Virus record (IMG/VR): IMGVR_UViG_3300022602_000027
Source of the DNA: a virus
Lineage: Duplodnaviria > Caudoviricetes
Reading direction: 5' to 3' (one strand)
DNA length: 64,000 bases
Part shown: positions 1 through 48,734 of the stretch, one piece after another
How the letters are laid out: every line of letters begins with the position of its first letter
How positions within the stretch are numbered: position 1 is the first letter of the stretch
Notes under the pieces: model-generated
Told to the model about the DNA's origin: nothing
Database searches by the model: none
Seen by the model: only the letters and a program-made list of their open reading frames with translations
Program-made: the position numbers and the translations under genes

Positions 1-3000
1 GACAATACAGATATTTTCAACGATGTTATATATAATCCACCAAGCGGATATCGCAGAGAGCGTATTAAAGTTTCAGGTTATGTAACTGAAGGATGGTACG
101 GCGGATTAGATATTCCTGGATTTATATATGATGGTGCTAAAGTACAAAATTGGCAACCATGGCAAGATTATAACATGGCTGATATTATTTCCTATCAAGG
201 AAATTATTATAGCGCCAATAAATTTATAGCAGGTGCGTCAGTGTTTAACTCTGTGGAATGGTTAAGATTAAAAAATCAACCAACTGCACAGCTATTACCT
301 AACTGGACAAATACTGCTACACAATTTATAGATTTTTACGGCCTTGACATTGATAATTTTAATATTCAGCAACAGCAGTTTGCTCAACACTTAATTGGTT
401 ATCAAACACGTCAATACTTAGACAATATTATTCAAGACCCAGTTAGCGAATTTAAATTCTTCCAAGGAATGATTCGTGATAAAGGTACACAGAATGTATT
501 GAATCATTTGTTTAATGTATTGAGCAATGACGGAACAGAAAGTCTAACTTTCTATGAAGAGTGGGCTATCCGTGTTGGACAATATGGTGCGGCAAAAGCG
601 TTTGAAAATTTTGAAGTTGTTATTGATCAAAATGAATATAAAAATAATCCTCAAGGATATTATCTAACTACTAGAAAAAATAATAAAGTTAGTACTGTTA
701 TTAATCAATTAACTCCTAATGAAATTTATGTTAAACCTTTAGGGTATGATAATCAACCATTCCCTGTATTAGAAAATCCTGATCCAGTCTTGCGTAGTGC
801 AGGATATGTAAACCCTATTGATGTGACATTTAAACTAGGATATATTTCAGATATACTTAATTATGATGTATCTTTATTAGGTAATGGTCAATATGTTTGG
901 ACTGCATTTAGCGAAAACACATGGAATATCTACAGATTTACAGATTTGCAAATCCGTGTACTTAATGTAAGTTACTCAACTGACACTAAAACATTAACTT
1001 TGACTACACAAAATCTAATAGTTCTAAAAGCTGGAGATTATATTGGATTAGATCAAGTAGCAAGTATTAAAGGATTTTATAAAGTAGCAAGTGTTTCTTT
1101 AAATTCATTTACAGTAGTAACACCAACTGCAATAACAATTCCGTCTCCATTTACAAATACAAGTGAAGTAGTCGTTTATGTATTAACTACTCAACGCACT
1201 AGTTCTATGGATACATTAGACAAGTTATTGTTATCACATTTAAAACCTAAAACTTTAATATGGACAGATGATGACGGTAGCGGAAAGTGGGCAGTATGGC
1301 AATACAATTCTGTTTATGCCACACAAAATATTCCAAATGCAACACCGTCTACTAACTTTAATTTTGGTTCTAGTTTGTCAATTAACACACAAGGGTCTAT
1401 ATTAGCAGTTAGCAATAGTCAAGGCACGGTATCTATTTTTGATAAAGTGGGTCGTTCAGTTAAATGGGAAGCAAGAGGACATTTGTTAGAGCCTTTTATA
1501 TCAAAGAACGGCATAGTAAATGCTGATCAAGTTGCTACAGTAACCGCAATAAGTGCGGATGGAACATGGTTAGTAACTGGTAGTCCTAATGCTGGCTATG
1601 CAAGAACAAATTATAAAGGCGTTTACAATTCTAGCTCAACATACGCTATTAATAGTGTTGTGGCTGTACAAAATTCTACAAATAATTATTCTTACTATCA
1701 AGCATACCGAGCAGTTCCTATTAACACTCCAACAACTAATACTACTTACTGGTATGCAGTACCTTATGTTGATGTAAATCAAGTACAAGGATCTGATTCA
1801 AGTTTAGCAAATCAAGGTGTAATTAGCATCTACTTAAAAGATTTAGATAACAATTATAATTTAGTTGATACTATTATAAGTCCTTTGCCAAGCGCAAATG
1901 AACAATTTGGATCTAGTCTTATTTTTGGTAACAATACCTTGTATGTTGGTGCTGTGGGTTATAATAATGGCGCAGGTCGAGTATACAAATTATCATACTC
2001 TAGTACAGTGCGTGTTGAAACACAATACAATCCTGTAGGCAGTATTAACAGTACACTAGCAGTTACATCAACTAACGGAATTCGAGTTGGAATGATTGTT
2101 AGCGGTGTTGGGTTTACTAGCGGACAAACAGTGGATGCGGTGTTAAGTGAGACTACATTAGAACTAAGTGGAACACCTGACACTGGAGTTATACCTTCAG
2201 GTATGCTTCAATTTATAACAAATAGTTGGGCATATGACTGGACAGAAAATTATGTTGGTACTGGTACAAATGCATTAGGATCTAATTTATCAATAAGTTC
2301 AGATGCTAGCACACTTGCTATTACTGCCGTTGGCACTGCTCACATTTATAAAAATACTGGTAATGGTTTAGAAGAAATACAAGTATTAACTGGAAGCGAT
2401 GCATATTTTGGAAAAGCTATTGCAATATCACCGGACGGCACATACATTGCCGCATCTGACGACACATCAGGTAATGTAAGCCAACAAGGTAATGTTACAG
2501 TTTATCAATATAGCAATGGTACATACACTTCGTCACAAACTTTAGTTAATCATCAACCTGAAACAAACGGTTTGTTTGGTAATAAGATAGCGTTTATGGA
2601 TGATACTACTATTGTCGTTTATAGTAAAAATGGCGATAGCACTATTACAACTACATTTGATAATGATACTACTACATTTGATAAGAGCTCTACTAATTTC
2701 TTAACAGTAGAAGTTAATAGTGGGCGTGTAGATATATATGACAAATATCACAATGTTTGGGTATTCAGTGAAAGTTTAGAATCAGAAAATCTTCCTAGCG
2801 ATGGTTACGGAACAGGATTTGCAGTAGGTGCTAACCAAGTAATTGTTAGCGCACCTAATGCATCTGATCAAAGTCTTGCATCAGGACAAGTTTATAGTTA
2901 TGGAAAACAGAATGACACATATTCTTGGTCAATCTATGAACAGCAAGATGTAGTACCTGATGTTAATAAAATTAGAAAAGCATTCTTGTATGATCAAACA

Positions 3001-6000
3001 TTAGGAAAACTAGTAACATATCTTGATATTGTTGATCCTCTACAAGGAAAGATTCCAGGACCTGCACAAGAAGAAATTACATATCAAACATTCTATGATC
3101 CAGCAAGTTACTCGTACAGCGACGGCACTGCTGGTGTTGTTCTAAATACAAATGAATTCTGGGCAGATATACCTGTTGGACAATTATGGTGGGATTTAAG
3201 AACTACCAAGTTCTTAGAAAATAATTTTAATGATCCATCTTATAGAAACAGTGCTTGGAATACACTAGCAGAAGGCGCAAGCGTTGATATTTACGAATGG
3301 GTTTCAACTAACTTATTGCCATCTAATTGGGATAATTTAGCAGACACTCCGTCAGGAATTGCTATCGGTATCAGCGGAACAAGTTTATATGGTAATTCAG
3401 CTTACAGCGTAACACAAGTATACGATAACATTAGTAAAACATTTAGAAATACATATTATTTCTGGGTTAAAAATAGAAAAATAGTTCCAGCATCAACTAG
3501 CGGTAGAAACATGGCCGCAAATGATGTTTCACTATTAATTGCTAATCCACGAGCACAAGGTTATACATGTTTAGCGATTACAGGAGTTGATACATTTAGT
3601 TTAGTAAATGCCGCTGGATATTTAAAAGGTACTGAAGTTATTCTTGCTATTGAATACTGGGTAATCGATAAAACAGATCAAAATGTTCACAGCCAATGGA
3701 AATTAATCAGTAATGATACACTTGTTAACCTTCCAGCTGTTATTGAACAAAAATGGTTTGATAGTTTATGCGGTATTGACGAAGGCGGTCGTTCAGTGCC
3801 AGATCCAACTTTACCTATTAAATTACGTTACGGTATTGAAAATCGTCCTCGCCAGAGTATGTTTGTGAACCGTATTGAGGCATTAAAAGAATTTATTGAA
3901 AGTGTTAATACAACATTAAGCACATATCAAACTACAGAATTGAAAGATATTAGTTCTTTAGAATCTTATGATCCTATCCCTAATCCAATATATGGATTAT
4001 ATGATAAGATTGTTGATACTTATGAAGAATTAGGATTTGCAAGTATTGGTTATTTCTCAGTACCGGTACTAACACCAATTATTACTAATGGTAGCATTAC
4101 TGGAATTACGGTAATTAATTCAGGCAAAGGATATGTTTATGCTCCTTACGTTACTATTATTGGATCAGGTGAAGGTGCAGTAGTACGTACAACAATCAAT
4201 GCGTTAGGTGAAATTACAGGTGCAACTATTATCAATGGCGGTACTGGATATAATAGCGGTACACAATGCTCAGTTCGTAGTTACTCTGTGCTAGTAAACA
4301 GTGACAGTACTTCATCTGACACATGGAGCATTTATTCTTATAATACCATTAGTAAACAATATTCTAAAGTATTAACACAAGGTTACGATGTTAGAAAATA
4401 TTGGTCTTATATGGACTGGTATGAAACAGGATTCAGTCAGTTTAGTGCTCCTGATATTACTGTTAACAATTTTGTTGATTTGAATACTACACAAGATATA
4501 TTCTTTAATCAAGCACGAAATAACACTATTGGTAATGGACAATTAGTTAAAGTATTAAATGGAAATGCAAACAAGTGGGTATTGTTGTATAGATACTCTT
4601 CAGTTGTTTCTGTAGACTGGACACAAAGCTATCGCGTAGTAGGAATTCAAGACGGAACAATTCAATTTAATACTAACTTGTATGAGTTTGCAGGAACTGA
4701 TATTGGTTACGACTCTAGCATTTTTAATACATCAAACTTTGACGTTCAAGCTAGTGCTGAATTACGAATTATACTTAACACTATAAAAAATAATATTTTA
4801 ATAAACGATCTAAAACAAAATTATTTAGATTTATTCTTAAACGGTTTAAGATATGCGCACAGCGAACAGCCGTTTATTGACTGGGCGTTCAAAACTAGTT
4901 TTGTCCGTGCTACTCATAATGTTGGACAATTATCCCAACCAGTTAACTATCCTGTTGATAATTTAAGTAATTTCCAAGATTATGTTGCAGAAGTTAAACC
5001 TTATAGAACTAAAATTAGAGAATATGTAAGTCAATATACTAGCATTGATACTAATCAATCAGCAGTAACAGACTTTGACTTACAACCTAATTATTCAAAT
5101 ACAAAAATTAAACCAGTTGAGACAACATTTATTAACAACAGTATTAGTGTTGTAGATCCAACAATACAAAATTATCCTTGGAAGTTTTGGTTAGACAATG
5201 TTGGTTTTAGCATTATTGAAATTAAAATCGTCAGTGGTGGTAGCGGCTATGCTAGTGCTCCAGTAGTAATTATTGATCAGCCAACTGGTGCAAATTCTGT
5301 TCCAGCTACGGCTAAAGCATTTATTACTAACGGAGTAGTTAATAGAATATTATTAACAAACATTGATACATACGGTCGTGCTGGTAGCGGATACCTAAGT
5401 GCGCCGAGCGTAACGCTTTATGGTGGATTAGATAAAGGCGGAGTAGCAGCCAAAGCAGTTGCAATTATTGGAAATAGCGTTGTACGTTCAACATCAACTG
5501 AGTTGCGTTTTGACCGTGTTAACCAAACTTATTACCTAGCAAACTTGCAACAAGTTGATTCATTTACTGGTACTGGTTCTAAACTACAGTATGTGTTAAC
5601 TTGGGCACCAGACATTCGTGCAGGAGAATCTAGTGTTACAGTTAACGGTATTCCTGTTTTAAGAGAATTGTATGCGTTGTCAGTAGTAAGCTCAACTGCA
5701 TCTGGATATACACAATATACAGGTAAAATTACGTTTGCCTCAGCTCCGGCAACTGGATCAACAATAGTTGTCAAATACAATAAAGCACCGTCAGTATTAA
5801 CAGCGGTCGATCGTATTCAATACTATTATAATCCAGCATCTGGACAGTTAGGAAAAGATTTAGGACAGTTAATGACTGGAGTTGATTACGGCGGTGTTGT
5901 AGTCAGCGGTTTAGGTTTTGATGTAGCCGGCGGATGGGGTTCTGCTCCGTACTTAACAGATGCATGGGATAGTAGACCTGCAACATTTAAAGATTATTCT

Positions 6001-9000
6001 GTACAAGTTACAGGTAATACTCACGTGTTTACGTTGCCATATACACCTGCTAATGGAACAGCGATCAACATTTATTTCTCAAGATTGATAACAACTTCTT
6101 ACGTATCCGACGGAGTTTCGTTGCAATATGCTTACGATTTATCTTTATTAGATGTATCCGTTAATGTTGTAACAGTTACTCAAACAACAGCAATTACCGC
6201 AACTTATGTTCCAAGTCAAATTGTTAACGGTATAACATTTATTAGTAGCGGCTATACATTAGTAGTATCGGATACTACTGGAATTGTTCCAGGAATGATT
6301 GTAAGTGGAACTGGTTTTTCTAGAAGACAAAAAGTTGTAAATGTAGTTAACTCAACAACATTAACTATTGATAACGTAGCAGATACTGCTCCGAGCGGAT
6401 TAATAACATTCTCTAACTTAGCAGGCGGATTTGTTTTAACTGTGTCTGATACTACTGGATTAGCAGTTGGCGATGTTGTGACAGCCTCAACTGCTCACGG
6501 AACAATTTTTGCATACGGTACTACTGTGACAGCAGTTAATTCTTCAACGTCTGTTACTTTAAATCAAGTACTTTATTCAACAATAACTCCAGGAACAAAT
6601 ATAAACTTTACTAAAAATTTAGTAGAACCAACAGACGTAGTTATTAATGCATCTGGAACTATTCAATTATTAGAAGCATACGCTTCTGGAAGTACAATTA
6701 ATATTATTGGACAAAAACCACCAGTAAGATTAGACGATCCTTATTATGGAATGTCCGCCACACAAAACTGGGCTACTGGCACTGTGTATGCAGTTAATGA
6801 TCTTGTTCTTTACAATAGTATTTCTTATATTTGTAAGACTGCACACACTGCCGCTTCTTCATGGAGTATAGATTTTGCTCAAGGATATTGGAAATTAATT
6901 AACACTAATGCTATTATTCCTACTCCGGTTATTGGCGTTAGTGTAATTACAAACGTAGTTGAAGGTGGCGCTGGTGGCGCAACATTGACAATTTCATCAT
7001 ATAGTGGAGTAGACGACGGGGGTTCAGCATCAACGGTTGAATCATCAATTATTGATGGAGGAATTATTGATGACTCTCCAACTAATGTAATTGAAATCCC
7101 TGCAACATTTACAGTATTACCAGGAGATGAATTTATTTTAAGAGAATCTACTAGCGACGGTTCTATTTCAACCCCTGATGCAAATTACGATACATCAATG
7201 GATGGCGGAAATTTAACTTATTCAACTGCTACAGGTATTGCCGCAGATGACATAGTTGTTGATGGAGATGGATTTGTAACCCCAACTTCAAGTCCAGCAC
7301 CGGAAGAAGTTGTTCCAGGACAAGTTGTTGATGCATTATCTATTAAAGTTTATGATAAATCACAAGCAGGTTCTGCCGCTATAAAAGTAAACTCACAGAT
7401 TACAGACGGTATTACTAATACATACAGCATTGGGCAAACTCCTAATAGTCCTCGAGCATTAATTGTAAAATTAGGTAATAATATTCAAACGTACGGAACC
7501 GACTACTCAATAGATTATACAAACGGAACAGTAACATTTACTCCGTCTGGAAATAGTATTCTTTCAACAGGACAGTTGGTAACAATTTTTAGTGTTGGAT
7601 TCAACGGTACTAATATTTTAGATTTAGATTATTTTGTTGGTGACGGTGTTACAACAGAATTTATAACTCGAGCACCATGGATTACTCCTGTTACTAGTTT
7701 AATATATGTTGACGGAATTTCAACTCCTGCAAATTTATTTAAAACTGATAGTACATACACATTTACTAATGCTATTGGAATTAGATTTATAACACCACCT
7801 GCTGTAGGAAAATTAATTAATTTTATTATTGTTAGCGGCAATCAACAAACATTTGCAACTACAAAAACTGAAAGAATTACCGCAACAGGCTCATCAACAT
7901 ATACTTTAACATATCCTATTGGAATAACTTTACCAAACGAAAGCAATATGATTGTAAGAGTTAACCAACAAATATTAAGTGCTCCTGTTAATAATTATTT
8001 TACTATCGGTAATGATCAGTTAACTTATACATTAGATCCAAGTAAGGCACTTCCGTATTCTACAACAGTTGATAATGTTTTAGTTTATGCAGAAGGTAGT
8101 ACATTAACTTTTGGATCAGATTATACTGTTGACCCAGCTGGTATTTCAGTAACAATTAACCAAAACATATACGCAGAATACGAAGGTAAATCATTAATTG
8201 TTAGTATCATTACAAATGAAGGTTACACATACAATCCAATCAGCAGTCAGATTACATTTGCGCAAGGATCTGTTCCTTCAAACGGCGATGTTGTTGAAAT
8301 AATTAGTAACTACTTGCAAGATATTTTAGATATAGAACGCACAGAAGTACAGTATTCATCTACATTTACTTTAACACCTGGAACAATTGAATTCTTCAAA
8401 TACAATGCTCTTGGTGGCGGATTAATTCAATTAGACAGACCTGTAATTAATGCCGACTATGTTTGGGTAATTAAAAATAAAACTTTATTAAGTTCTGGTA
8501 CTGATTATAAACTTAATGAAGATTTACAAAGTTTACGTTTAGCAAAACCTTTAAGAAGCTCAGATGTTTTAGAGTTAATAACTTTTGGTAGCAACATTTT
8601 ACCTTCAGCTGGTATTTCATATATGCAGTTTAAGGATATGCTAAACAGAGTAAGATATATTCGATTAAATGCAAATAAGCAAACTACACTAGTGCAAGAT
8701 TTAAAATGGAATGACACACAAATTGTAGTAAATGATGCAAGTCAACTTGATCAACCAAATGCAGCCGCAAACAGACCGGGTGTAATTGAAATACGTGGCG
8801 AGCGCATTGAATATTTTAATGTTAACGGAAATGTTTTAAGTCAATTACGTCGAGGTACATTAGGAACAGGAGTTTACAATTTAAATAAATCTGGATCATA
8901 CGTACAAGGAATTGGTGCAAGTGAATATATTCCTTACACCGATACTACAGTAACTGAAACAGTTAAATCGTCAGGACAAGGAGTTCCGCGAACAACTGGA

Positions 9001-11121
9001 ACAGTATTGTCTACAACATCAAGCGTTGCAGAACCAATTGCCAACTTTGGTATAACAACTACATCTGGACAACTATCTGTATCGACTGGACAATATTATG
9101 TAGGTCAAGTGATTACTATAAGTGGTCAACCTGTACACAGTACACTCAATGGTGTAGTTTCTTTAGGCACTAATGGACAATTTAGTTGTTTGCCAACAAC
9201 TGTTACATTAGCATCTGGACAATCTGTAATTATTAACAATTCAACGGCTAATGCTCCAATTATTGGTCTAGCAATTACAGGAACATCAGGTCAATTTAGT
9301 TGTTCTTCAAGTCCAGTGCCATTAGTAGTAGGACAGCAAGTAACTTTAATAGGCTTAGTTACTGTTTCTCGATTCTTGTCTGGAGTTACCATTAACAACA
9401 CAAGTGGATTGTTCCAATGTACATATTCAAATACATTATTACAAGTGGGACAAACTGTAACTGTTACTGGAACATTTGGCGGTGGTGGCGGAATCTTAGG
9501 GTACACAAGTGGTACAACTTATACTATTAGTGCAACTGATGGACATAGCAATTTCACCTTAATTACATCACCTACAACATTTACAGCAGTTTCTGCTACT
9601 AATATTATTGGTACAGGATCAGGCGCAGTGTTCAATGTGTATGCGGCAAATAGAGGATATAAAGTTACGATAGCATCAGCTGGTACAGGCTATGCTGTTG
9701 GCAACACTATGAAAATTTTAGGTGGCGCATTAGGTGGCACTAATGTAACTAATGATTTGCTTATTTCAGTTGCTGGAGTATCTAATGGCACTATTACAGC
9801 TATTTCTGTTAGCGGTGTTTCAAATTACGGTGATCCGTTGATCACAACCTCCGGAGTTCCAACAGGAGTTACTTGGCAACTAGTGGCAGGATCTGGAAGT
9901 ATTCAAAATTATGTTTCTCCAGAAACATATAAAATATCAGCAACTAATGGGTCATCTACATTTACATTAACAACTCTTGATAATCAACCTTTGGTTACTA
10001 CAGTTGGTACTCCTGCGGATGGTATAGTAATAGATACTGGATTAAATGTATCGTTGAATCCTGGATCAATTACTGGATATGTTGGAAATCAACAAAGATA
10101 TTACATTATTGCTACTAATGGTTCAACACAATTTACATTATCTGCAACTTACAACGGTAGCGCAGTTACAACTACATTGGGTTCAATGTATGGACAGCAA
10201 TACTCTGTTAGTGCCGCAACTATAAACAACTATTCTAATCCAAAGAATTATTATGTTGTTGCTACAAATGGAACATCTACGATGACATTGTCTGAAACGC
10301 TTGGAGGACCTCCTGTTACAACTACAATTGGTACACCAAGTGGATTAATAGCCAGTGTGCCTAACAGTATAATAACAGTAAGTGATAATAGCGGTTTAGT
10401 TGCATTACAAAAATTTGTAGTTACAGGTGCAGGTGGTGGTGGATTAACTGCTGGAACTTATTACATAGTTAATCCGTCAGTTGGTACTAATCAAATCACT
10501 TTAGCTACATCATTATCTTTAGCAGAAGCCGGTAAACCAATTGGCACACTAACTACTGCTACATTATCAAACACATCGTTTACATCGGGTGGGCAAGATA
10601 TTAGTATTGGATTTGTGCCAGCAAACGCTGATCAAATTGAAGTGTTTGTTGGAGGTTACGATAATGTATCATGGTCCCCAGACACTGCGTATAAGGTAGG
10701 AACTATTGTGTCAGTGGGCGCATATACTTATAGATGTTCAACTGCACACACAAGTTCATCATCGTTTGGTAATGATTTGTCTAACTGGTATTTCTTTGTA
10801 GAAAATATTCGATTAAGAAAATCAGCATACAGTGTGTTTAACATTAACAAAGCACCATATAGCCCTGCCGGCGATGTAAATTTTGCCGAAGACTTTATTG
10901 TCGACGGAACAACTTCGATTATAACTTTAACAAATCCGCTGTCCCTTGGCACACAAGTAACAGTAGTTAAGAGATCAGGAATAGCATGGGACGGTAACAA
11001 ATCCGGAACAACAGTTAATCAAACAGTTGCGCCATCAGTTAATATCTTAAATGATAGTTCCGCTATTGCTAACTTTATCAGAGCAGAACTTGGAATTTGG
11101 TACACGGACTACAAGAGTTAA
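1..11121 (+). CDS. Giant virion structural protein (baseplate wedge/fibre-like adhesin), 5'-truncated, at least 3706 aa
   Basis: Frame is open from base 1 (DNTDIFNDVIYNPPSGYRRERIKV...) into the 3648-aa ORF. Contains FG-GAP-like propeller repeats (FGSSLSI, FGSSLIFG, FGKAIAISPDG, YGTGFAVG), GxGY...P.V.I...G.GA fibre repeats, three CBM5/12-like W/Y...Y.V.D.V.Y...Y.C...H modules and Thr/Ser/Gly-rich beta repeats. Confidence 0.8.
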   Translation, partial: DNTDIFNDVIYNPPSGYRRERIKVSGYVTEGWYGGLDIPGFIYDGAKVQNWQPWQDYNMADIISYQGNYYSANKFIAGASVFNSVEWLRLKNQPTAQLLPNWTNTATQFIDFYGLDIDNFNIQQQQFAQHLIGYQTRQYLDNIIQDPVSEFKFFQGMIRDKGTQNVLNHLFNVLSNDGTESLTFYEEWAIRVGQYGAAKAFENFEVVIDQNEYKNNPQGYYLTTRKNNKVSTVINQLTPNEIYVKPLGYDNQPFPVLENPDPVLRSAGYVNPIDVTFKLGYISDILNYDVSLLGNGQYVWTAFSENTWNIYRFTDLQIRVLNVSYSTDTKTLTLTTQNLIVLKAGDYIGLDQVASIKGFYKVASVSLNSFTVVTPTAITIPSPFTNTSEVVVYVLTTQRTSSMDTLDKLLLSHLKPKTLIWTDDDGSGKWAVWQYNSVYATQNIPNATPSTNFNFGSSLSINTQGSILAVSNSQGTVSIFDKVGRSVKWEARGHLLEPFISKNGIVNADQVATVTAISADGTWLVTGSPNAGYARTNYKGVYNSSSTYAINSVVAVQNSTNNYSYYQAYRAVPINTPTTNTTYWYAVPYVDVNQVQGSDSSLANQGVISIYLKDLDNNYNLVDTIISPLPSANEQFGSSLIFGNNTLYVGAVGYNNGAGRVYKLSYSSTVRVETQYNPVGSINSTLAVTSTNGIRVGMIVSGVGFTSGQTVDAVLSETTLELSGTPDTGVIPSGMLQFITNSWAYDWTENYVGTGTNALGSNLSISSDASTLAITAVGTAHIYKNTGNGLEEIQVLTGSDAYFGKAIAISPDGTYIAASDDTSGNVSQQGNVTVYQYSNGTYTSSQTLVNHQPETNGLFGNKIAFMDDTTIVVYSKNGDSTITTTFDNDTTTFDKSSTNFLTVEVNSGRVDIYDKYHNVWVFSESLESENLPSDGYGTGFAVGANQVIVSAPNASDQSLASGQVYSYGKQNDTYSWSIYEQQDVVPDVNKIRKAFLYDQTLGKLVTYLDIVDPLQGKIPGPAQEEITYQTFYDPASYSYSDGTAGVVLNTNEFWADIPVGQLWWDLRTTKFLENNFNDPSYRNSAWNTLAEGASVDIYEWVSTNLLPSNWDNLADTPSGIAIGISGTSLYGNSAYSVTQVYDNISKTFRNTYYFWVKNRKIVPASTSGRNMAANDVSLLIANPRAQGYTCLAITGVDTFSLVNAAGYLKGTEVILAIEYWVIDKTDQNVHSQWKLISNDTLVNLPAVIEQKWFDSLCGIDEGGRSVPDPTLPIKLRYGIENRPRQSMFVNRIEALKEFIESVNTTLSTYQTTELKDISSLESYDPIPNPIYGLYDKIVDTYEELGFASIGYFSVPVLTPIITNGSITGITVINSGKGYVYAPYVTIIGSGEGAVVRTTINALGEITGATIINGGTGYNSGTQCSVRSYSVLVNSDSTSSDTWSIYSYNTISKQYSKVLTQGYDVRKYWSYMDWYETGFSQFSAPDITVNNFVDLNTTQDIFFNQARNNTIGNGQLVKVLNGNANKWVLLYRYSSVVSVDWTQSYRVVGIQDGTIQFNTNLYEFAGTDIGYDSSIFNTSNFDVQASAELRIILNTIKNNILINDLKQNYLDLFLNGLRYAHSEQPFIDWAFKTSFVRATHNVGQLSQPVNYPVDNLSNFQDYVAEVKPYRTKIREYVSQYTSIDTNQSAVTDFDLQPNYSNTKIKPVETTFINNSISVVDPTIQNYPWKFWLDNVGFSIIEIKIVSGGSGYASAPVVIIDQPTGANSVPATAKAFITNGVVNRILLTNIDTYGRAGSGYLSAPSVTLYGGLDKGGVAAKAVAIIGNSVVRSTSTELRFDRVNQTYYLANLQQVDSFTGTGSKLQYVLTWAPDIRAGESSVTVNGIPVLRELYALSVVSSTASGYTQYTGKITFASAPATGSTIVVKYNKAPSVLTAVDRIQYYYNPASGQLGKDLGQLMTGVDYGGVVVSGLGFDVAGGWGSAPYLTDAWDSRPATFKDYSVQVTGNTHVFTLPYTPANGTAINIYFSRLITTSYVSDGVSLQYAYDLSLLDVSVNVVTVTQTTAITATYVPSQIVNGITFISSGYTLVVSDTTGIVPGMIVSGTGFSRRQKVVNVVNSTTLTIDNVADTAPSGLITFSNLAGGFVLTVSDTTGLAVGDVVTASTAHGTIFAYGTTVTAVNSSTSVTLNQVLYSTITPGTNINFTKNLVEPTDVVINASGTIQLLEAYASGSTINIIGQKPPVRLDDPYYGMSATQNWATGTVYAVNDLVLYNSISYICKTAHTAASSWSIDFAQGYWKLINTNAIIPTPVIGVSVITNVVEGGAGGATLTISSYSGVDDGGSASTVESSIIDGGIIDDSPTNVIEIPATFTVLPGDEFILRESTSDGSISTPDANYDTSMDGGNLTYSTATGIAADDIVVDGDGFVTPTSSPAPEEVVPGQVVDALSIKVYDKSQAGSAAIKVNSQITDGITNTYSIGQTPNSPRALIVKLGNNIQTYGTDYSIDYTNGTVTFTPSGNSILSTGQLVTIFSVGFNGTNILDLDYFVGDGVTTEFITRAPWITPVTSLIYVDGISTPANLFKTDSTYTFTNAIGIRFITPPAVGKLINFIIVSGNQQTFATTKTERITATGSSTYTLTYPIGITLPNESNMIVRVNQQILSAPVNNYFTIGNDQLTYTLDPSKALPYSTTVDNVLVYAEGSTLTFGSDYTVDPAGISVTINQNIYAEYEGKSLIVSIITNEGYTYNPISSQITFAQGSVPSNGDVVEIISNYLQDILDIERTEVQYSSTFTLTPGTIEFFKYNALGGGLIQLDRPVINADYVWVIKNKTLLSSGTDYKLNEDLQSLRLAKPLRSSDVLELITFGSNILPSAGISYMQFKDMLNRVRYIRLNANKQTTLVQDLKWNDTQIVVNDASQLDQPNAAANRPGVIEIRGERIEYFNVNGNVLSQLRRGTLGTGVYNLNKSGSYVQGIGASEYIPYTDTTVTETVKSSGQGVPRTTGTVLSTTSSVAEPIANFGITTTSGQLSVSTGQYYVGQVITISGQPVHSTLNGVVSLGTNGQFSCLPTTVTLASGQSVIINNSTANAPIIGLAITGTSGQFSCSSSPVPLVVGQQVTLIGLVTVSRFLSGVTINNTSGLFQCTYSNTLLQVGQTVTVTGTFGGGGGILGYTSGTTYTISATDGHSNFTLITSPTTFTAVSATNIIGTGSGAVFNVYAANRGYKVTIASAGTGYAVGNTMKILGGALGGTNVTNDLLISVAGVSNGTITAISVSGVSNYGDPLITTSGVPTGVTWQLVAGSGSIQNYVSPETYKISATNGSSTFTLTTLDNQPLVTTVGTPADGIVIDTGLNVSLNPGSITGYVGNQQRYYIIATNGSTQFTLSATYNGSAVTTTLGSMYGQQYSVSAATINNYSNPKNYYVVATNGTSTMTLSETLGGPPVTTTIGTPSGLIASVPNSIITVSDNSGLVALQKFVVTGAGGGGLTAGTYYIVNPSVGTNQITLATSLSLAEAGKPIGTLTTATLSNTSFTSGGQDISIGFVPANADQIEVFVGGYDNVSWSPDTAYKVGTIVSVGAYTYRCSTAHTSSSSFGNDLSNWYFFVENIRLRKSAYSVFNINKAPYSPAGDVNFAEDFIVDGTTSIITLTNPLSLGTQVTVVKRSGIAWDGNKSGTTVNQTVAPSVNILNDSSAIANFIRAELGIWYTDYKS

Positions 11122-41352: not shown

Positions 41353-41524
41353 TTTTGCCCCATTTAATCTTTAACCAAAGTCTTTCCATAATATAGTGTA
41401 CAGCAGTTAGAATGACATGTATAAAAATAGCATCGCTTAATCCAGTCCATATGGCAGTTATTAACAATGCTATTATTCTATAGCTTAATGCTCTAACTAC
41501 TGTACGTTTATGAAGTTCAACCAT
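41345..41524 (-). CDS. DUF2061-like small membrane protein (59 aa, not in the ORF track)
   Basis: MVELHKRTVVRALSYRIIALLIT...HYIMERLWLKIKWGKIE*; TAATG overlap with the upstream gene. Confidence 0.75.
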   Translation of the reverse strand: MVELHKRTVVRALSYRIIALLITAIWTGLSDAIFIHVILTAVHYIMERLWLKIKWGKIE

Positions 41525-42255
41525 TACTTGCTTTGTGCTGGAAGTATGTATTCGTAAACTGTAGTACCACTGTCTACAATAATTGCCAACGCACCTGCAT
41601 CTGCAATCTTCATAGTAATGTCGCCTGACAACGCTAAAATAGCTTGTACTTGATTAACTGGCCATGACCATGTTTGTTTTAGTTTACCTGTAACACCGCT
41701 TTGGAACACAAATGATCCTGCGTGTGTACTTGCATCACCAAATTTAAATACCAAATTACCATTGTCTGTTGAAACTTGAAAAACTGTTTCTTCTGTATGT
41801 GCCGCCGCCTGATATTTTAAACGCTGGATAGCAGTTACAGTAGGTTCAAATTCTACATCCCATGTTGTACCTTTGAATTTAACAGTCTTTAATTTTTCTG
41901 TAATGACTTCAAGAGTCATAAAACGATAATCGTTTTCGAAATCGCCTGTTGAATTTTGAAAATGTAAACCTGTCGGAATGTCTTCGCCATTGCGTTGTTG
42001 CATAACAACATTGATGCCAGCGCCTTCTTTATATTCCGGGCATTTCAAATGCAAATCTAATTTGTTCAGTTGAGGCATACCAAATACACCATCTAATCCA
42101 TCTACTGGATTATGTGTTTTAGCATTAAGGATAACTGAACGATCTTCAGCCATTGATTCAACACTAGTTCCTTTTGAACTAGCCGTTACCTTAACCAAAG
42201 GTAAAAATCCTAAACTATGTGTGTGTGCTACTAAATCTTGTAAAAAGTCTTTCAT
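41524..42255 (-). CDS. Probable DNA polymerase sliding clamp (gp45-like)
   Basis: 243 aa from ATG 42255 (GGAG SD), with an alternating beta/alpha two-domain pattern, located near the polymerase. The assignment rests on size, pattern and context. Confidence 0.5.
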   Translation of the reverse strand: MKDFLQDLVAHTHSLGFLPLVKVTASSKGTSVESMAEDRSVILNAKTHNPVDGLDGVFGMPQLNKLDLHLKCPEYKEGAGINVVMQQRNGEDIPTGLHFQNSTGDFENDYRFMTLEVITEKLKTVKFKGTTWDVEFEPTVTAIQRLKYQAAAHTEETVFQVSTDNGNLVFKFGDASTHAGSFVFQSGVTGKLKQTWSWPVNQVQAILALSGDITMKIADAGALAIIVDSGTTVYEYILPAQSK

Positions 42256-42275
42256 ATGATTCTCCATGTTTTATT

Positions 42276-43072: not shown

Positions 43073-45739
43073 TTAAAACTCGAATAGGCTATTAAATGTA
43101 TTTTTCTCTTCAGTACTAGCAACGTCCCATTTTAGAACACCGATTAAGTTATCTAATTTGTTATCGATAATAGTCTGCTCCATTTCTGCATGATCAAAAG
43201 GAAGATCCTTAAACCATTGTGGTAAACGTAGTTCATCAACTGGATATGCAACACTAGTAAAGCCTAGCGGATTAGGTTTGAGTTTACATACAATAACTTT
43301 GGCGCCGTCTGTAATACTCATAGAGTATTTGTCATTGTACATACGCTTGAGGGTATTCCAATTAATACTTGCACGAACATGGCCAGGCATATTTGCTTTA
43401 CCTGCTTTGGCTTCTTTACCTTGATATTCAGTAATCTTGTTAGCACGTTTAGGCGAACCTTTTTCCCAACCCGGACGAGCTTTAAACTTGATACGGAATT
43501 CACTAATGTGATCTAGAACTTCTTGTTCAGGTTTACCCATTAGCACCATTTCAAGAACATCGCTTAAGAAATTTTGAATAAATTCAGGAGTATCACTACG
43601 CTTTAGGTCCAAGCCCATAGCTTTAATCTTACCAGGCTTGCCTTCTACGTCTGTACGTTTACCTTCTTTATCATAGTAAAGAACTGCATAACGTTTCTTA
43701 GTAATAAACAAACTCTTAGAGCCAACAATTTCACGTCCAGCTTTAATAACTTCTCCACGCGACTTAGGTACATGAAATGCATCTAGCATGAACTGTGGAA
43801 ATGTAGTGTTAACTTCATCTCCAATTGTGTCATACAGTTGTATTACTGTTTCTTTTGTCCAGGGGATGGTACCTTTTTCAATGTCCTTCTGTAGAGTGCT
43901 ATAAGCACTAAAATAACAACTATCAGTGTCACCATATATTACTGCCTTTCCTATGTGATTATAATCGCCAGTTATGATTTCATTTACTTTACTAGCCATA
44001 TGTTTAGCGATCTGGCGTCCAGTAAGAGTAGTGGACTGCCCAATACGCTTATCAAAGAACCTACAACCGCTATTAAGAATAGCACCATACAAACTATTGA
44101 GGTTAATTTTCTTAACCAACTGTCTTTTGTCCCAATATTCTTCTTCAACTTTATTCCCCGCCTTAATGGCATCCTTTAGTTTAGCCTGCATTTCTTTACG
44201 TTCGGCATACCAACGTTTGAGTAATCCAGGAATAATACCTTCTGTTTCGTGCGTAAAGATAGTACCATTGGCACTCATCATCCAAGGTTGATTGCTTTCA
44301 AATATAAGTCTGTAGACTTCTGCGGCACTAAGTACATCAGTATCTCCATTTTCCCAGTCAATGGTAATGTCTGTACCAATTTCTTGATTCATTACAGCAG
44401 TATATTCAATAGTACCAAACATACCTTCCCACGCCGCGGCAAACGACTTTCCTTTCGCCATTAAGTTTTCAATATACTCATCAGTCTTAGTTGGACGTAA
44501 CTGTCCAATAATAGTTTCTGGACCCATATTAAGTGCTCTAATTGCACTAGGATACAGTGAGTTAATATCTAAAGATCCAACCCAATCTTGTAATCCTTCT
44601 TTAGGATATGCAACATACGCACCTGCCGCCGCAGTATCTTCACGATCACTCATTTTAATACGATTAGGAACAACGAATCCTCTGCGATGTGCTTCATTAA
44701 TAATAGCTTGTTCAGTAACGGCTACAGCACCCATTGTAGTTTGTAGCAATACAGTATTTTCATGTGCTAGTGTATTTGCTAAATCGATAAACTTTAGTTT
44801 TCTATCTAGTTTTTCAAGTAGCATACAGTCATTGATGTTGTATTCAACAAATGTTTTAAAGTCATTGTTGTATAACTGATCCAATGTACCTTCGTATTGT
44901 GTTTTACGTTCACCTAATTCATATTCTGCAATAGCATCTAGTCGATAACTATGTCGTTCTTCATATGTATATTTGCGATACAACTCTAAATAGTCTAAAT
45001 GTACACGACCAATGTAGTCATATGTAACAGCATTACGACCATATTTTTCATATTCACGGCGCTTAGGTAACTGATCAAACAAACAAAAACGTCTAGTGTC
45101 TTCTTTGCCTAATGTTTTAATAACACGGTTAGTAGTATAGGGAATATCAAAGCCTTCTGAGTTCCAACCACTTACAATATCTGCATCTTTAATTAGATCT
45201 AAGAACATGTCTAATAAGTCTGCTTCATTATCAAACAAATAAGTGTTAGGAAATTCTTTAACCATTTCCTTAGCATCTTCCATACCAAGGCCCTTAGGAG
45301 GAATAGCTAGGCATACCATTGTTTGTAACCATTGTAGGTAGACAGCAATCGCAGTAATTGGCATAAATGCATCGTCTGGACTAGCATAGCCACGCTCTGG
45401 ATCGAAGTCTACCTCAATATCGAAAAATGCTACATTTAACTTAGGAGCATCTTGATTAAGATAGTTTTCACTTAGTGTTACAAAGATAGGATTAATGTCT
45501 GCTTCGTACATTGTCTTGCCACTGTTGATAGCTTGTTCTTTACGAAGTTCTTTTGTGTTTTTACAGACAATCCTTTGTACAGGATCTCCATAAATTGATT
45601 GATGTTTCCCTCTCGGGTCTTTTACATAAAATGTGTGGCGTACAGGAATATCTCTAAATTCCCTTTCGCCTTTTTGGTTGCGTTCAACGATCTTGATGAT
45701 ATCGTTGTCACGGTCAAACCATGCGTCAACGTAAGACAT
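43073..45739 (-). CDS. polB: Family B DNA polymerase (T4 gp43-like)
   Basis: Exonuclease motifs FFDIE, GWNSEGFD and YNINDC; polymerase motifs LDINSLYPS, KINLNSLYG and YGDTDS; KKRYA. No intein or intron seen. Confidence 0.97.
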   Translation of the reverse strand: MSYVDAWFDRDNDIIKIVERNQKGEREFRDIPVRHTFYVKDPRGKHQSIYGDPVQRIVCKNTKELRKEQAINSGKTMYEADINPIFVTLSENYLNQDAPKLNVAFFDIEVDFDPERGYASPDDAFMPITAIAVYLQWLQTMVCLAIPPKGLGMEDAKEMVKEFPNTYLFDNEADLLDMFLDLIKDADIVSGWNSEGFDIPYTTNRVIKTLGKEDTRRFCLFDQLPKRREYEKYGRNAVTYDYIGRVHLDYLELYRKYTYEERHSYRLDAIAEYELGERKTQYEGTLDQLYNNDFKTFVEYNINDCMLLEKLDRKLKFIDLANTLAHENTVLLQTTMGAVAVTEQAIINEAHRRGFVVPNRIKMSDREDTAAAGAYVAYPKEGLQDWVGSLDINSLYPSAIRALNMGPETIIGQLRPTKTDEYIENLMAKGKSFAAAWEGMFGTIEYTAVMNQEIGTDITIDWENGDTDVLSAAEVYRLIFESNQPWMMSANGTIFTHETEGIIPGLLKRWYAERKEMQAKLKDAIKAGNKVEEEYWDKRQLVKKINLNSLYGAILNSGCRFFDKRIGQSTTLTGRQIAKHMASKVNEIITGDYNHIGKAVIYGDTDSCYFSAYSTLQKDIEKGTIPWTKETVIQLYDTIGDEVNTTFPQFMLDAFHVPKSRGEVIKAGREIVGSKSLFITKKRYAVLYYDKEGKRTDVEGKPGKIKAMGLDLKRSDTPEFIQNFLSDVLEMVLMGKPEQEVLDHISEFRIKFKARPGWEKGSPKRANKITEYQGKEAKAGKANMPGHVRASINWNTLKRMYNDKYSMSITDGAKVIVCKLKPNPLGFTSVAYPVDELRLPQWFKDLPFDHAEMEQTIIDNKLDNLIGVLKWDVASTEEKNTFNSLFEF

Positions 45740-45754
45740 AAATTTTCTTCTCCA

Positions 45755-45808
45755 TGCAATTTAGGGCTTGCAAATACCTTTCTGCGACTTATGGCTCGCG
45801 AACCTTTC
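45755..45808 (-). promoter_or_regulatory. Tandem hairpin leader (candidate translational operator) of the DNA polymerase
   Basis: Two units at 26-nt spacing: GAAAGGT..GCGA-GCCATAAG-TCGC and GAAAGGT..TGCAA-GCCCTAAA-TTGCA, ending 1 nt before the GGAG SD. Confidence 0.6.
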
Positions 45809-45821
45809 GTTATATACTTAT

Positions 45822-46079
45822 TTAGATTTTTTTAGTAATATCTAAAATTGCTTCAATCTCAGCCCAATCTTCGTTATGTGCCGCCCAATCGCCTTTGTGT
45901 GCAATCTTAATAGCTTTATTAATAACTGATGGTTTGATTTGAAGTTCTTCTGCAACTGCCTTAACAGTTTCTTTTAAACCTTCTGTTAAGTCTTCAACTT
46001 CACGTAGTACTGTAGAACCTTCATTAATTAGTCGTTCTAGTTTTGCCTTTTCTTCTGCGCCGTAATTTCTTCCTGACAT
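45822..46079 (-). CDS. dsDNA-binding protein, T4 DsbA/GapR-like
   Basis: 85 aa, helical LINEG...LREVEDL..GLKE.VK..AEEL.IKP.VINKAIKIAHK pattern. Confidence 0.65.
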   Translation of the reverse strand: MSGRNYGAEEKAKLERLINEGSTVLREVEDLTEGLKETVKAVAEELQIKPSVINKAIKIAHKGDWAAHNEDWAEIEAILDITKKI

Positions 46080-46099
46080 GTAAGTCTCCTTTATAGCCT

Positions 46100-46129
46100 A
46101 TTATATAATAATTTATGTTTAAGTGTCAA
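46100..46129 (-). promoter_or_regulatory. sigma70 promoter TTGACA-N18-TATAAT
   Basis: -35 at 46129-46124 and -10 at 46105-46100; drives the dsbA-like/pol unit. Confidence 0.7.
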
Positions 46130-46142
46130 ATTTTAGAGGTGG

Positions 46143-46168
46143 AAATGGCAGAAATAAATCTGCCATTT
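46143..46168 (-). terminator. Intrinsic terminator-like hairpin closing the late block
   Basis: Perfect 10-bp stem aaatggcaga/tctgccattt with a 6-nt loop, 4 nt after the 853-aa gene stop. Confidence 0.7.
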
Positions 46169-46172
46169 TTAA

Positions 46173-48734
46173 TTAACGTCGAGCTATTTGCAACCAACGA
46201 GCTAGTTCTGCGTCTACTGATTCTTTTTGTACTTGTCCGTTATTTGTAACTGTTTGAGTTGTACTTACTGGTGCAGTTGGAGTGTTAACACCATTTCCGC
46301 CAATAGTAGTACCAGCTGGTACCATTGGTACAGTTAATCCTTTTGGATCTGCATTTTGTCCAGACTGTGGAGGTTCACATTTAACGGAATCAATAGCCGC
46401 TTGACCGTGAGCTAAACCTTGTTTAACAGCAACATCATTTTGATCAGCTTGTTGTAGTTGTTGCATTTCGCCTTTGATAGTTTGAATCAATTGCATTTGT
46501 TCTGCGCTACATACTACTTTAGCATTTGCATCTTGTTTATTTGCATCTTGTTTACTTGGATCGGCATTTTGTACACCGCCACCGCCACCTGCACCACCAC
46601 CACCGCCACCTGCACCACCAGCATCGCTTGCGGCATATAATCCGGCACCAACTGCTCCAGCAGTAATTAAACCAAGTGCAATGGCTTTTTTAGGATTAGC
46701 TTTAATCCAGTTAGCAATGCCTCCTGATTTAATTTCTTGTTTTTCTATATCAGTTAACGCAGTACTAGACATAGCTTTAGTTTCTGCGGCGGCAAGTTCT
46801 TCTTTGCTTGCCTTAATCATTGTATTTTGTGCGGCTGTTAAATCATTAACAGTTTGGCTAGCAGGCGTGTGTGTTCCCATGTTCTGGTTAGCACTTGCTT
46901 GATTGTTCTTTATAGTGTTTGGATTTTTTGGATCTGCTTTATGAACTGTTACATTTGGATTAGCAGCCTTGTCAGCGGCATTTACAGCTGATTTTTCTCC
47001 GCCAGCAACTGTTTTATCAGCGGCTTTTGCCGCACCACCGCCGAACATTCCGGTTAGTTTATTCCAACCTGTTTTTAGACCACCGCCAATTTGATTTCTA
47101 AATCTACTAAAGAAGTTTCCGCCTACTTCGTCAGCCGCTAATCCAGCACCTGATTTTTCAAACAAGAAATTTTCACTTAGGTATTCTTCTGCGTTGGCAA
47201 TTTCCCATCCATCTTCACTGTATAGTACATTGTTTTCGTCTAAGTATACCCAAACATCTTTTGAATTTTCAATATCATTTAAACGATTGCGTAGACTTGC
47301 AATACTTTCTGCAAGAGTCAACGGAGCACTTTCCGAAATGCCGGCAGTTGAATAAGTAGTTGCATCTGGCTTACCTGTAGCAGGTAAACTATTCTTTTGT
47401 TGCCATGCTTGTAATGCTTTTTGTGTTTCTGGACCAAACTTACCATCAGGTTTAACACCGATAGTTGATTGCAAAGCCGCTAGTTTCTGATCACCACCGG
47501 CAGCTAATACTGCTTGGTCAGATGCCGCTCTAGCCGCATCGGCAGCCATAAATCCACCAACAGCGGCACCTTGTTTCCCAACAAACTTAGCGGCACCTTT
47601 AGCGGCAGCACCTGGATTGGCTACAACTTTTGCCCCAGTAGTTGCGGCCTTTTGAGCGGCTAATGCCGCTAATTCTTTTGCTCCTAATTTTCCAGCACCG
47701 CGAACTGCCGCACCGGCAGCACCAACGCCTGGAACTAAGAACGGAGCAACCATGCCTGCAATTTCTCCACCTTTATATAAATTAGGACTACGTGCTTGTG
47801 CCGCGGCATCTGCATCATATTCTTTACTTAATTCGTCTTTATACTTTGTACCATTCCACAAGCTCTTAACACCTGCGTTAATATTATTGCCAAATCCAAA
47901 TGTAAGACCTTGTTCAGCCCCGCGAGCTGTATCACCAACATCTTGTCCAAATTGATTTAAACTATATTCTGCTACTTGTTCTTCATCTTCAAACAAATAT
48001 CCAAAACTTTCAGTTAATTCTCTTGCAAGACTTTCTTTGTTTAATTGCTTGTATGCATCAACACCGGCCGCACCTAAAGCTCCGCCTATAGCTCCTGGAA
48101 TCCCAGCAGTTAATCCACCGGCACCTGCACCACCAGCCGCCGCGATTCCAAGCTCGGGCCAATTAAAAGGTTTGCCTGTTTTAGGGTCGATTTTTTTAGG
48201 ATCCGTATCTTGTTTTGTATTAGGTGCTGGAGCAGGTGCTGGAGCAGGTGCTGGAGCAGGTGCTGGAGCAGGTGCTGGAGCAGGCTGTGCTTTTTGCAAT
48301 TGATCAATAGCCGCATATAATTTTTGCAAATGCTCTTGTTTAAATTCTTCTTTTTCAGCTCTAGTATTAGCTGTTTGGCTCATACCTTGTAAGCCTTTGT
48401 CGTATTCGTCACCACTGTAACCTGTTAGACGACCAAAGAACGATGATGTTTTTGCTTTTTGTGGTAATAGACCTTTATCAGCAAGTTGGTAGTCAACATC
48501 TTTACTAGCTGTTCCCCATTGTTTTTGACCTTGGTTATTAACAAATGCACCTGATACTGGATCATATAGTCCTGGAACTTGATATTGTGTTGCTAGTTGT
48601 CCTAGAATTTGAAAACGTTTTGCATCATCTTGCTCAGTACCTGCAATGGCCTTTTGGATGTCTGCCATTGCAGTTTCATCTAATTTATAGTTTTCTAAAA
48701 TATCTATTCTTTGAATAAGGTCTTTAATGTTCAT
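46173..48734 (-). CDS. Large probable internal virion/ejection protein with a peptidoglycan-binding domain
   Basis: LQSTIGVKPDGKFGPETQKALQAWQ (PG_binding_1), Gly/Ala zipper hydrophobic segments, multiple L/I-x-E sites and low-complexity linkers. Confidence 0.6.
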   Translation of the reverse strand: MNIKDLIQRIDILENYKLDETAMADIQKAIAGTEQDDAKRFQILGQLATQYQVPGLYDPVSGAFVNNQGQKQWGTASKDVDYQLADKGLLPQKAKTSSFFGRLTGYSGDEYDKGLQGMSQTANTRAEKEEFKQEHLQKLYAAIDQLQKAQPAPAPAPAPAPAPAPAPAPAPNTKQDTDPKKIDPKTGKPFNWPELGIAAAGGAGAGGLTAGIPGAIGGALGAAGVDAYKQLNKESLARELTESFGYLFEDEEQVAEYSLNQFGQDVGDTARGAEQGLTFGFGNNINAGVKSLWNGTKYKDELSKEYDADAAAQARSPNLYKGGEIAGMVAPFLVPGVGAAGAAVRGAGKLGAKELAALAAQKAATTGAKVVANPGAAAKGAAKFVGKQGAAVGGFMAADAARAASDQAVLAAGGDQKLAALQSTIGVKPDGKFGPETQKALQAWQQKNSLPATGKPDATTYSTAGISESAPLTLAESIASLRNRLNDIENSKDVWVYLDENNVLYSEDGWEIANAEEYLSENFLFEKSGAGLAADEVGGNFFSRFRNQIGGGLKTGWNKLTGMFGGGAAKAADKTVAGGEKSAVNAADKAANPNVTVHKADPKNPNTIKNNQASANQNMGTHTPASQTVNDLTAAQNTMIKASKEELAAAETKAMSSTALTDIEKQEIKSGGIANWIKANPKKAIALGLITAGAVGAGLYAASDAGGAGGGGGGAGGGGGVQNADPSKQDANKQDANAKVVCSAEQMQLIQTIKGEMQQLQQADQNDVAVKQGLAHGQAAIDSVKCEPPQSGQNADPKGLTVPMVPAGTTIGGNGVNTPTAPVSTTQTVTNNGQVQKESVDAELARWLQIARR
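46525..46554. repeat. 15-nt tandem repeat x2 (KQDAN)
   Basis: tttgcatcttgttta, two exact copies. Confidence 0.9.
46579..46620. repeat. 21-nt tandem repeat x2 (Gly-rich GGAGGGG)
   Basis: ccaccgccacctgcaccacca, two exact copies. Confidence 0.9.
48222..48281. repeat. 12-nt tandem repeat x5 encoding a (PA)n linker
   Basis: aggtgctggagc, five exact copies. Confidence 0.95.

Follow-up and report, generated by a model that had tools for sequence, protein, structure and literature searches.

The leader of the family B DNA polymerase gene in the DNA analysed here, from an uncultured giant phage of a lake (the window, 64,000 nucleotides at its full length), carries two predicted miniature RNA pseudoknots, arranged in tandem directly against the ribosome-binding site. 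The element heads the translational unit of the polymerase in every locus checked, in more than 200 related viral contigs. We propose that this leader may constitute a translational operator of the polymerase mRNA, with the polymerase itself as the likeliest repressor, a reading to which our analysis would give about an even chance.

The polymerase gene (43073..45739, minus strand) encodes a gp43-type protein of 888 aa with matches to Pfam PF00136 and PF03104 and, like all genes of the polymerase region, is located on the minus strand. Its product shares about 27% identity with T4-type gp43 over 75-92% of the protein (tblastn) and 50% with the polymerase of Sinorhizobium phage Phosso. On its 5' side lies a gene for a protein of 85 aa (45822..46079, minus strand, with the stop codon TAA at 45824-45822), and the two are separated by a spacer of 82 nt (45821-45740, minus strand). 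The 85-aa protein matches phrog_12534, a family of unknown function, and less strongly phrog_639, a transcriptional regulator; it is predicted to belong to a small DNA-binding/transcription-regulator (DsbA-like) family. A homologue of its gene is also found beside the polymerase gene of phage MIJ3, where it is annotated DsbA. About 20 nt before the 85-aa gene there is a sigma-70 promoter, TTGACA-18-TATAAT (46100..46129, minus strand), which matches the consensus at 12 of 12 positions, and a scan of 45600-46300 revealed no terminator-like site between this promoter and the polymerase gene. It is probable that the 85-aa and polymerase genes are co-transcribed and, since no terminator follows the promoter, that the element is intercistronic within an early operon. 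Such a perfect consensus implies strong early transcription of the 85-aa/polymerase operon by the host RNA polymerase. At the start of the window, a reading frame that stays open for more than 3,600 aa (1-11121, plus strand) extends past the window edge.

Read as RNA, the leader is ..GAAAGGU-UC-GCGA-GCCAUAAG-UCGC-AGAAA-GGU-AUU-UGCAA-GCCCUAAA-UUGCA-U-GGAG-AAGAAAAUUU-AUG, where the 10 nt of AAGAAAAUUU (N10) separate the Shine-Dalgarno (SD) sequence GGAG (45750..45753, minus strand) from the start codon of the polymerase (45739-45737, minus strand). A first-pass annotation of this DNA had described the 82-nt spacer as two repeated hairpin units, and two such units are indeed present, at 45804-45784 and 45778-45755 on the minus strand. 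Reading of the sequence bears out the two 8-nt loops, the stem lengths (4 and 5 bp), the GAAAGGU flank common to both units, and the end of the second unit 1 nt ahead of GGAG. The linker between flank and stem, given there as two nucleotides, has that length in the first unit and is three nucleotides long in the second. What has to be abandoned is the description of the units as simple hairpins with single-stranded 8-nt loops, because the flank pairs with the beginning of the loop and each unit thereby becomes a pseudoknot.

Comparison of the homologous leaders indicates that each unit is an H-type pseudoknot of about 24 nt rather than a plain hairpin. In its general form, the unit has a helix S1 of 3-4 bp, a loop L1 of 1-3 nt, and a helix S2 of 4-5 bp; L2 is absent, and L3 comprises 4-6 nt and is rich in A. 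In the first pseudoknot (PK1, 45784..45804, minus strand), the 5' strand of S1 is GGU (45804-45802), followed by L1 (UC, 45801-45800), the 5' strand of S2 (GCGA, 45799-45796), the 3' strand of S1 (GCC, 45795-45793), L3 (AUAAG, 45792-45788), and the 3' strand of S2 (UCGC, 45787-45784). After a spacer of five nucleotides (AGAAA, 45783-45779, minus strand), the second pseudoknot (PK2, 45755..45778, minus strand) repeats this order with GGU (45778-45776), AUU (45775-45773), UGCAA (45772-45768), GCC (45767-45765), CUAAA (45764-45760), and UUGCA (45759-45755). The spacer between the two pseudoknots is mostly 4-6 nt in the parsed leaders. The SD lies outside all pairing, 0-3 nt beyond the 3' end of PK2 in 89 of the 93 parsed leaders, while the distance from the SD to the AUG varies. 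No conserved anti-SD segment was seen in the aligned leaders.

The two pseudoknots are not conserved to the same degree. In PK2, L1, the closing pairs, and two adenines of the loop are nearly invariant in a clade where polymerase identity falls to about 62%. Among the 72 distinct PK2 sequences compared, the loop follows the consensus GCC-N-N-A-A-R, with the two adenines of L3 present in 72/72 and UAA in just 36/72. PK1 is more variable, keeping its hairpin pairs while its unpaired nucleotides are poorly conserved, and it is missing from two loci that retain PK2 (L115 and L210). The poor conservation of these unpaired nucleotides would fit the recognition of shape and, equally, a purely structural role. 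An alternative pairing can be drawn within PK2 (45775-45759, minus strand), in which AUUUG of L1 and the start of S2 would pair with UAAAU of the end of L3 and the first base of the S2 3' strand; this helix is weak, consists entirely of A and U, excludes S2, and may be a chance occurrence in an A/U-rich sequence.

When the leader was folded as a single sequence, its stability was found to be no better than that of shuffled sequences (z 0.39). Since the fold energy is not significant, the evidence for the structure rests on the comparison with relatives and not on thermodynamics. The covariation of the stems that had been noticed between the two units extends over 50 to 120 distinct homologous leaders. 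When 50 distinct leaders are aligned, every one of them pairs at all four core positions of the first hairpin and at all five of the second. Seven stem pairs vary on both sides, and these changes include all four core S2 pairs of PK1. None of 500 shuffles of this alignment attained the observed value on three of five measures, the covariation score among them, and sliding the partners by 1-3 columns lowers the pairing from 92% to 28-45%. In the set of 72 PK2 sequences, two positions of S2 use three to four types of pair; complementarity of S2 was the selection criterion for this set, and that of S1 was not used.

The pairing that turns the hairpins into pseudoknots also covaries. The flank GGY is complementary to the first three loop bases GCC and changes together with them. 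The first S1 pair of PK2 is G-C in 62 of the 72 sequences, A-U in the remaining 10, and unpaired in none. In the scan of the viral collection, AGU replaces GGU in the flank of every genuine polymerase leader with the loop GCU, and where the first loop base is A the flank U is kept, so that U-A takes the place of U.G; GGU/ACC occurs in genuine leaders. PK1 goes further, with at least seven complementary S1 sequences in use. The types found are GGU/GCC, GGC/GCC, AGU/GCU, AGU/ACU, GAGU/ACUC, GAGU/ACUU, AGUC/GACU, and GGG/CCC, the last of which reads by eye as GGGU/ACCC. A fourth S1 pair shows no clear covariation in PK2, and S1 is therefore taken as 3 bp there. The variant scan gave no genuine leader with a changed middle S1 pair of PK2, and this pair, being invariant, is uninformative. 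On the opposite strand the U.G pair of S1 would read A.C, a mismatch, and the fold thus belongs to the sense RNA. A palindromic protein operator at the DNA level, a terminator, and an origin were also considered and rejected, given that the stems change freely with the pairing kept, that U.G is strand-specific, and that there is no T-run.

The polymerase has 456 matching relatives in IMG/VR and at least 8000 in the protein collection, which stem from uncultured phages with the longest contigs reaching 250-370 kb. The first-pass annotation had made the standing of the motif depend on its presence upstream of orthologous polymerase genes in related phages, and the examination of these leaders places it in every locus checked, in more than 200 contigs. 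Of the 80 closest loci, 79 have both units immediately 5' of the polymerase start codon, the element being separated from the gene in the 80th (L023). A scan with the PK2 pattern returned 80 viral contigs, all 80 of them polymerase leaders, with polymerase identities of 68-90%, and the genuine matches of the GCU variant are likewise all polymerase leaders.

The element is also confined to this position in the viral sequences searched. A covariance model of the whole element, built from relatives (R1), was run over 100 loci (834 kb in all) and gives exactly one match in each. In the 64-kb window it scores 88 bits at the polymerase leader (E 2e-28), the next best site reaching 11.7 bits. When the unit is reduced to a GGY flank, a stem with 4 bp or more, and a loop of the form GCC..AA., the window holds two instances, both of them here, compared to a mean of 0.3 in shuffled sequences. 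For a complete relative of 372 kb with terminal repeats, a model of PK2 only (R2) gives one strong match; R2 does not detect PK1, and its result of one match per genome therefore covers PK2-like units only. The sequence-specific unit is found twice in this genome, both times in the polymerase leader. A tandem-pseudoknot search independent of sequence was uninformative for the same genome, with 18 matches vs 18-22 in shuffles.

In cellular genomes (185,579 prokaryote species, one genome each) the full element was found in none; the 65 pattern matches obtained there are about what is expected by chance, and 5 of them have a complementary stem. In line with the novelty suggested by the first-pass annotation, no known riboswitch or other family of Rfam 15 gave a relevant match (cmscan, for the leader at E up to 10 and for 19 diverse leaders at E up to 5). 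The literature searched holds no description of the element. A catalogue of 10,006 predicted viral structured RNAs has been reported (Fremin et al. 2023, PMC10690425); its text makes no mention of a polymerase leader, and the element may be among its unnamed predictions.

Outside the clade, the element is absent from the loci of outgroup polymerases of about 50-57% identity, namely those of PA5oct, Phosso, P0122-like contigs, and a sister clade (L613-L615). A query with P0122 leads mostly back to the same large clade, and its only true relatives, L238 and L288, are both without the element. In PA5oct the 85-aa gene is paired with the polymerase gene, yet the element is absent. The sister clade, with polymerases 50% identical, keeps the order of the polymerase, clamp-like, and DpdA genes and has no element. 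The polymerase leader of this sister clade is plain, A/T-rich, and unstructured.

The 85-aa gene is the immediate upstream neighbour in 71 of 80 loci and occurs in 155 of 160. Downstream, the polymerase gene is followed by a UDP-glucose dehydrogenase-like gene, a 247-aa gene, and then DpdA, a succession kept by almost all of the element-bearing loci. The product of the 247-aa gene (41524-42267, minus strand) has no Pfam match and shares 33% identity with that of a gene annotated sliding clamp in the Phosso record, and we refer to the gene as clamp-like. In the clade, this clamp-like gene follows the polymerase gene in 119 of 120 loci and DpdA does so in 112 of 120.

The association of the element with the polymerase unit is preserved when the locus is rearranged. 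Where a gene has been inserted past the 85-aa gene (5 distinct contexts), the element remains with the polymerase gene. Where co-oriented ORFs are found between the element and the polymerase gene, their stop overlaps or abuts the polymerase start, as ATGA in the short-ORF cases, and such an ending at the polymerase start implies translational coupling. The ORFs occupying this slot are diverse. In L093, L100, L101, and L117 there is a cysteine-rich ORF of 53-63 aa (C-x2-C ... C-x-C, possibly a zinc ribbon) whose stop overlaps the polymerase start (ATGA), with a weak SD in L100, L101, and L117. In L213 and L233 a leader ORF of 15-20 aa, and in L220 an ORF of 180 aa without Pfam match (L220:4093-4635), likewise end at the polymerase start.

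The only locus in which the element is cut off from the polymerase gene is L023. This locus might be taken for an exception lacking the element, but it does carry it, 780 nt upstream of the polymerase gene and beyond an inserted, reverse-oriented gene for a DUF723/treble-clef zinc-finger protein of 247 aa (L023:204-947, minus strand). This insertion is probably of the mobile endonuclease type, and the polymerase gene has a new RBS after it. As for the sequences on the 5' side of PK1, a late-promoter box resembling TATAAATA is found within the 25 nt just before it in 31 of 99 distinct contexts, and in relatives such as L034, L051, L054, and L055 about 5 nt separate the end of an extended -10 element (TGnTATAAT) from the G with which PK1 begins.

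Since the SD is never paired, folding of the RNA alone cannot hide it. In the mechanism that we propose, a protein bound to PK2, with PK1 serving as a helper second site, would block the access of the 30S subunit to the adjacent ribosome-binding site. The bound operator would thereby limit translation of the polymerase and of any ORF translationally coupled to its gene. The repressor would most likely be free polymerase that is not engaged on DNA, as for gene 43 of T4, RB69, and RB49. We consider an operator to be the best explanation of the leader because the structure is close to the SD, is unique in the genome, and always heads the translational unit of the polymerase. A number of observations speak against it. 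The identity to T4-type gp43 is just about 27%, the coupling of the element to the polymerase gene is dispensable in L023, and homology to the T4 operator is not supported, as R1 finds nothing in RB49, PA5oct, or Phosso. Some T4-related polymerases, moreover, do not autoregulate (PMC3014915).

We have also considered that the leader could be an operator through which another protein controls initiation, such as a gp32-type SSB, a RegA-like repressor, the 85-aa protein, or ribosomal protein S1. The same anatomy, with its paired stems, the constraint on PK2, and the 0-3 nt to the SD, would suit such a protein, and recognition of a pseudoknot in an mRNA is established for gp32 (PMC3014915). The 85-aa protein would be a natural candidate by virtue of the place of its gene directly upstream, but the PA5oct gene pair dispenses with the element. 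A general regulator, for its part, should have several targets, whereas both the window and the 372-kb genome have the unit nowhere but in the polymerase leader, and we find control by another protein rather unlikely. A purely cis-acting structure, which could keep RNases off the 5' end of the mRNA or off a processing product, insulate the RBS from the sequence before it, or act as a standby site or enhancer, would agree with an SD that is never involved in pairing and with the variable loops of PK1. It would also agree with the TATAAT-like -10 box (counted at a match of 5/6 or better) that lies 0-10 nt, mostly 5, before PK1 in 32 of 99 distinct contexts vs 4 of 99 in a shifted control, as transcripts from such a box would start at the pseudoknot. 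However, the window itself has no good -10 box before PK1, the near-invariant L1, closing pairs, and two adenines of PK2 represent more constraint than a stabiliser needs, and the tight spacing of 0-3 nt to the SD suggests occlusion; a role exerted only in cis is thus in our judgement unlikely.

A further alternative is that the leader is a tandem riboswitch, in which each mini-pseudoknot binds a small molecule, e.g., a dNTP or a 7-deazaguanine precursor, and tunes the operon of the polymerase, clamp-like, and DpdA genes. Tandem aptamers are known, the H-type fold with an A-rich L3 is the topology of the small pseudoknot riboswitches, and the clamp-like and DpdA genes follow the polymerase gene in nearly all loci, as described above. 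Against this stand several features of the RNA itself, in that the SD is not sequestered, no alternative pairing that could expose or hide it is seen, the absence of L2 leaves no junction loop, and PK1 has few conserved unpaired bases. Neither the leader nor the 19 diverse leaders match the preQ1 classes or any other Rfam family, the element is found neither in the 185,579 cellular genomes nor before any other gene, and the sister clade keeps the polymerase/clamp-like/DpdA order without it. We therefore regard a riboswitch as improbable. The more specific variant, a phage-only tandem aptamer that would gate this operon by the supply of modified-DNA building blocks, is in our view more doubtful still.

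If the leader is indeed an operator for the polymerase, it would extend autogenous control of this enzyme to giant phages of fresh water that are uncultured and form a very abundant clade. To our knowledge, only a few T4-type coliphages are known to have a replicative polymerase that controls its own translation, and we know of no structure of an RNA-protein complex for it. The RNA architecture is different here, in that two pseudoknots, among the smallest that occur in nature, stand in tandem. Being small, strongly constrained, and limited to a single target per genome, the element would offer a clean system for studying the recognition of RNA shape by the polymerase or another factor. Should a ligand bind instead, it would represent a riboswitch known to date from phages alone. 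In either case, it is a candidate for a new Rfam family and for a compact, portable part for translational control.

Among the known systems, the gene 43 operators are the most instructive for comparison. The gp43 protein of T4 represses its own mRNA by binding an 18-nt hairpin together with a sequence that overlaps the RBS (PMC3014915), and autogenous repression by gp43 is established for gene 43 of T4, RB69, and RB49, with a hairpin of 16-18 nt in RB69 and T4 (PMC3014915). In the T4 leader we read this hairpin as AGCCU-AAUAACUC-GGGCU, 18 nt in length. The parallel to this operator drawn in the first-pass annotation is well founded as regards the position beside the SD, the stem of 5 bp, and the loop of 8 nt (PMC3014915). 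Both are cis elements that precede a family B polymerase gene of the gp43 type in its leader, each in a T4-related phage, the PK2 hairpin (5 + 8 + 5 = 18 nt) has the size of the T4 hairpin, and both have a single target per genome. PK2 furthermore abuts the RBS, and adenines are conserved in the 3' half of its loop; the loop of the gene 43 operators contains UAAC or UAAA, and its 3' AC/AA bases matter for the binding of gp43 (PMC3014915). The differences are equally clear. In the present leader the loop bases 1-3 pair with the 5' flank, while the T4 operator is reported to show no sign of a pseudoknot (PMC3014915) and neither the T4 nor the RB49 leader has flank-to-loop complementarity. The unit is duplicated, and the SD is just outside the structure, whereas the T4 operator overlaps it. 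We do not file the element as a member of the gene 43 operators because a pseudoknot replaces the hairpin, the unit is duplicated, and no homology is detected, R1 having no match in the gene 43 region of RB49.

The pseudoknot of T4 gene 32 is also of the H type; it lies in the leader of a gene for phage replication and serves autogenous control of translation (PMC3014915). The gene 32 (SSB) pseudoknot, however, is single, larger, and far upstream, and a long unstructured A/U-rich tract that is coated cooperatively by gp32 leads from it to the RBS. Here, the gene is that of the polymerase, and two mini-pseudoknots are placed directly against the SD. The preQ1-I riboswitch (RF00522) and other small pseudoknot riboswitches resemble the units in their compact H-type fold, similar size, A-rich third loop, and position in a 5' leader. 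They differ in that the units give no match to the preQ1-I model, lack an L2 with the ligand-pairing cytosine, and leave the SD outside the second helix. The preQ1 and other Rfam riboswitches, moreover, serve several metabolic and transport genes in cellular genomes, unlike the present element, which is found in viral polymerase leaders only.

The arrangement of the two sites resembles that of the thrS operator of E. coli, in which two anticodon-like hairpins, the proximal one beside the SD, are bound by the dimeric ThrRS. By this binding ThrRS represses its own translation in competition with the 30S subunit. Both leaders thus have a tandem of two similar structured sites, the proximal of which adjoins the RBS. 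The protein and the RNA are unrelated, and the thrS sites are hairpins that mimic tRNA, unlike the pseudoknots predicted for the polymerase leader.
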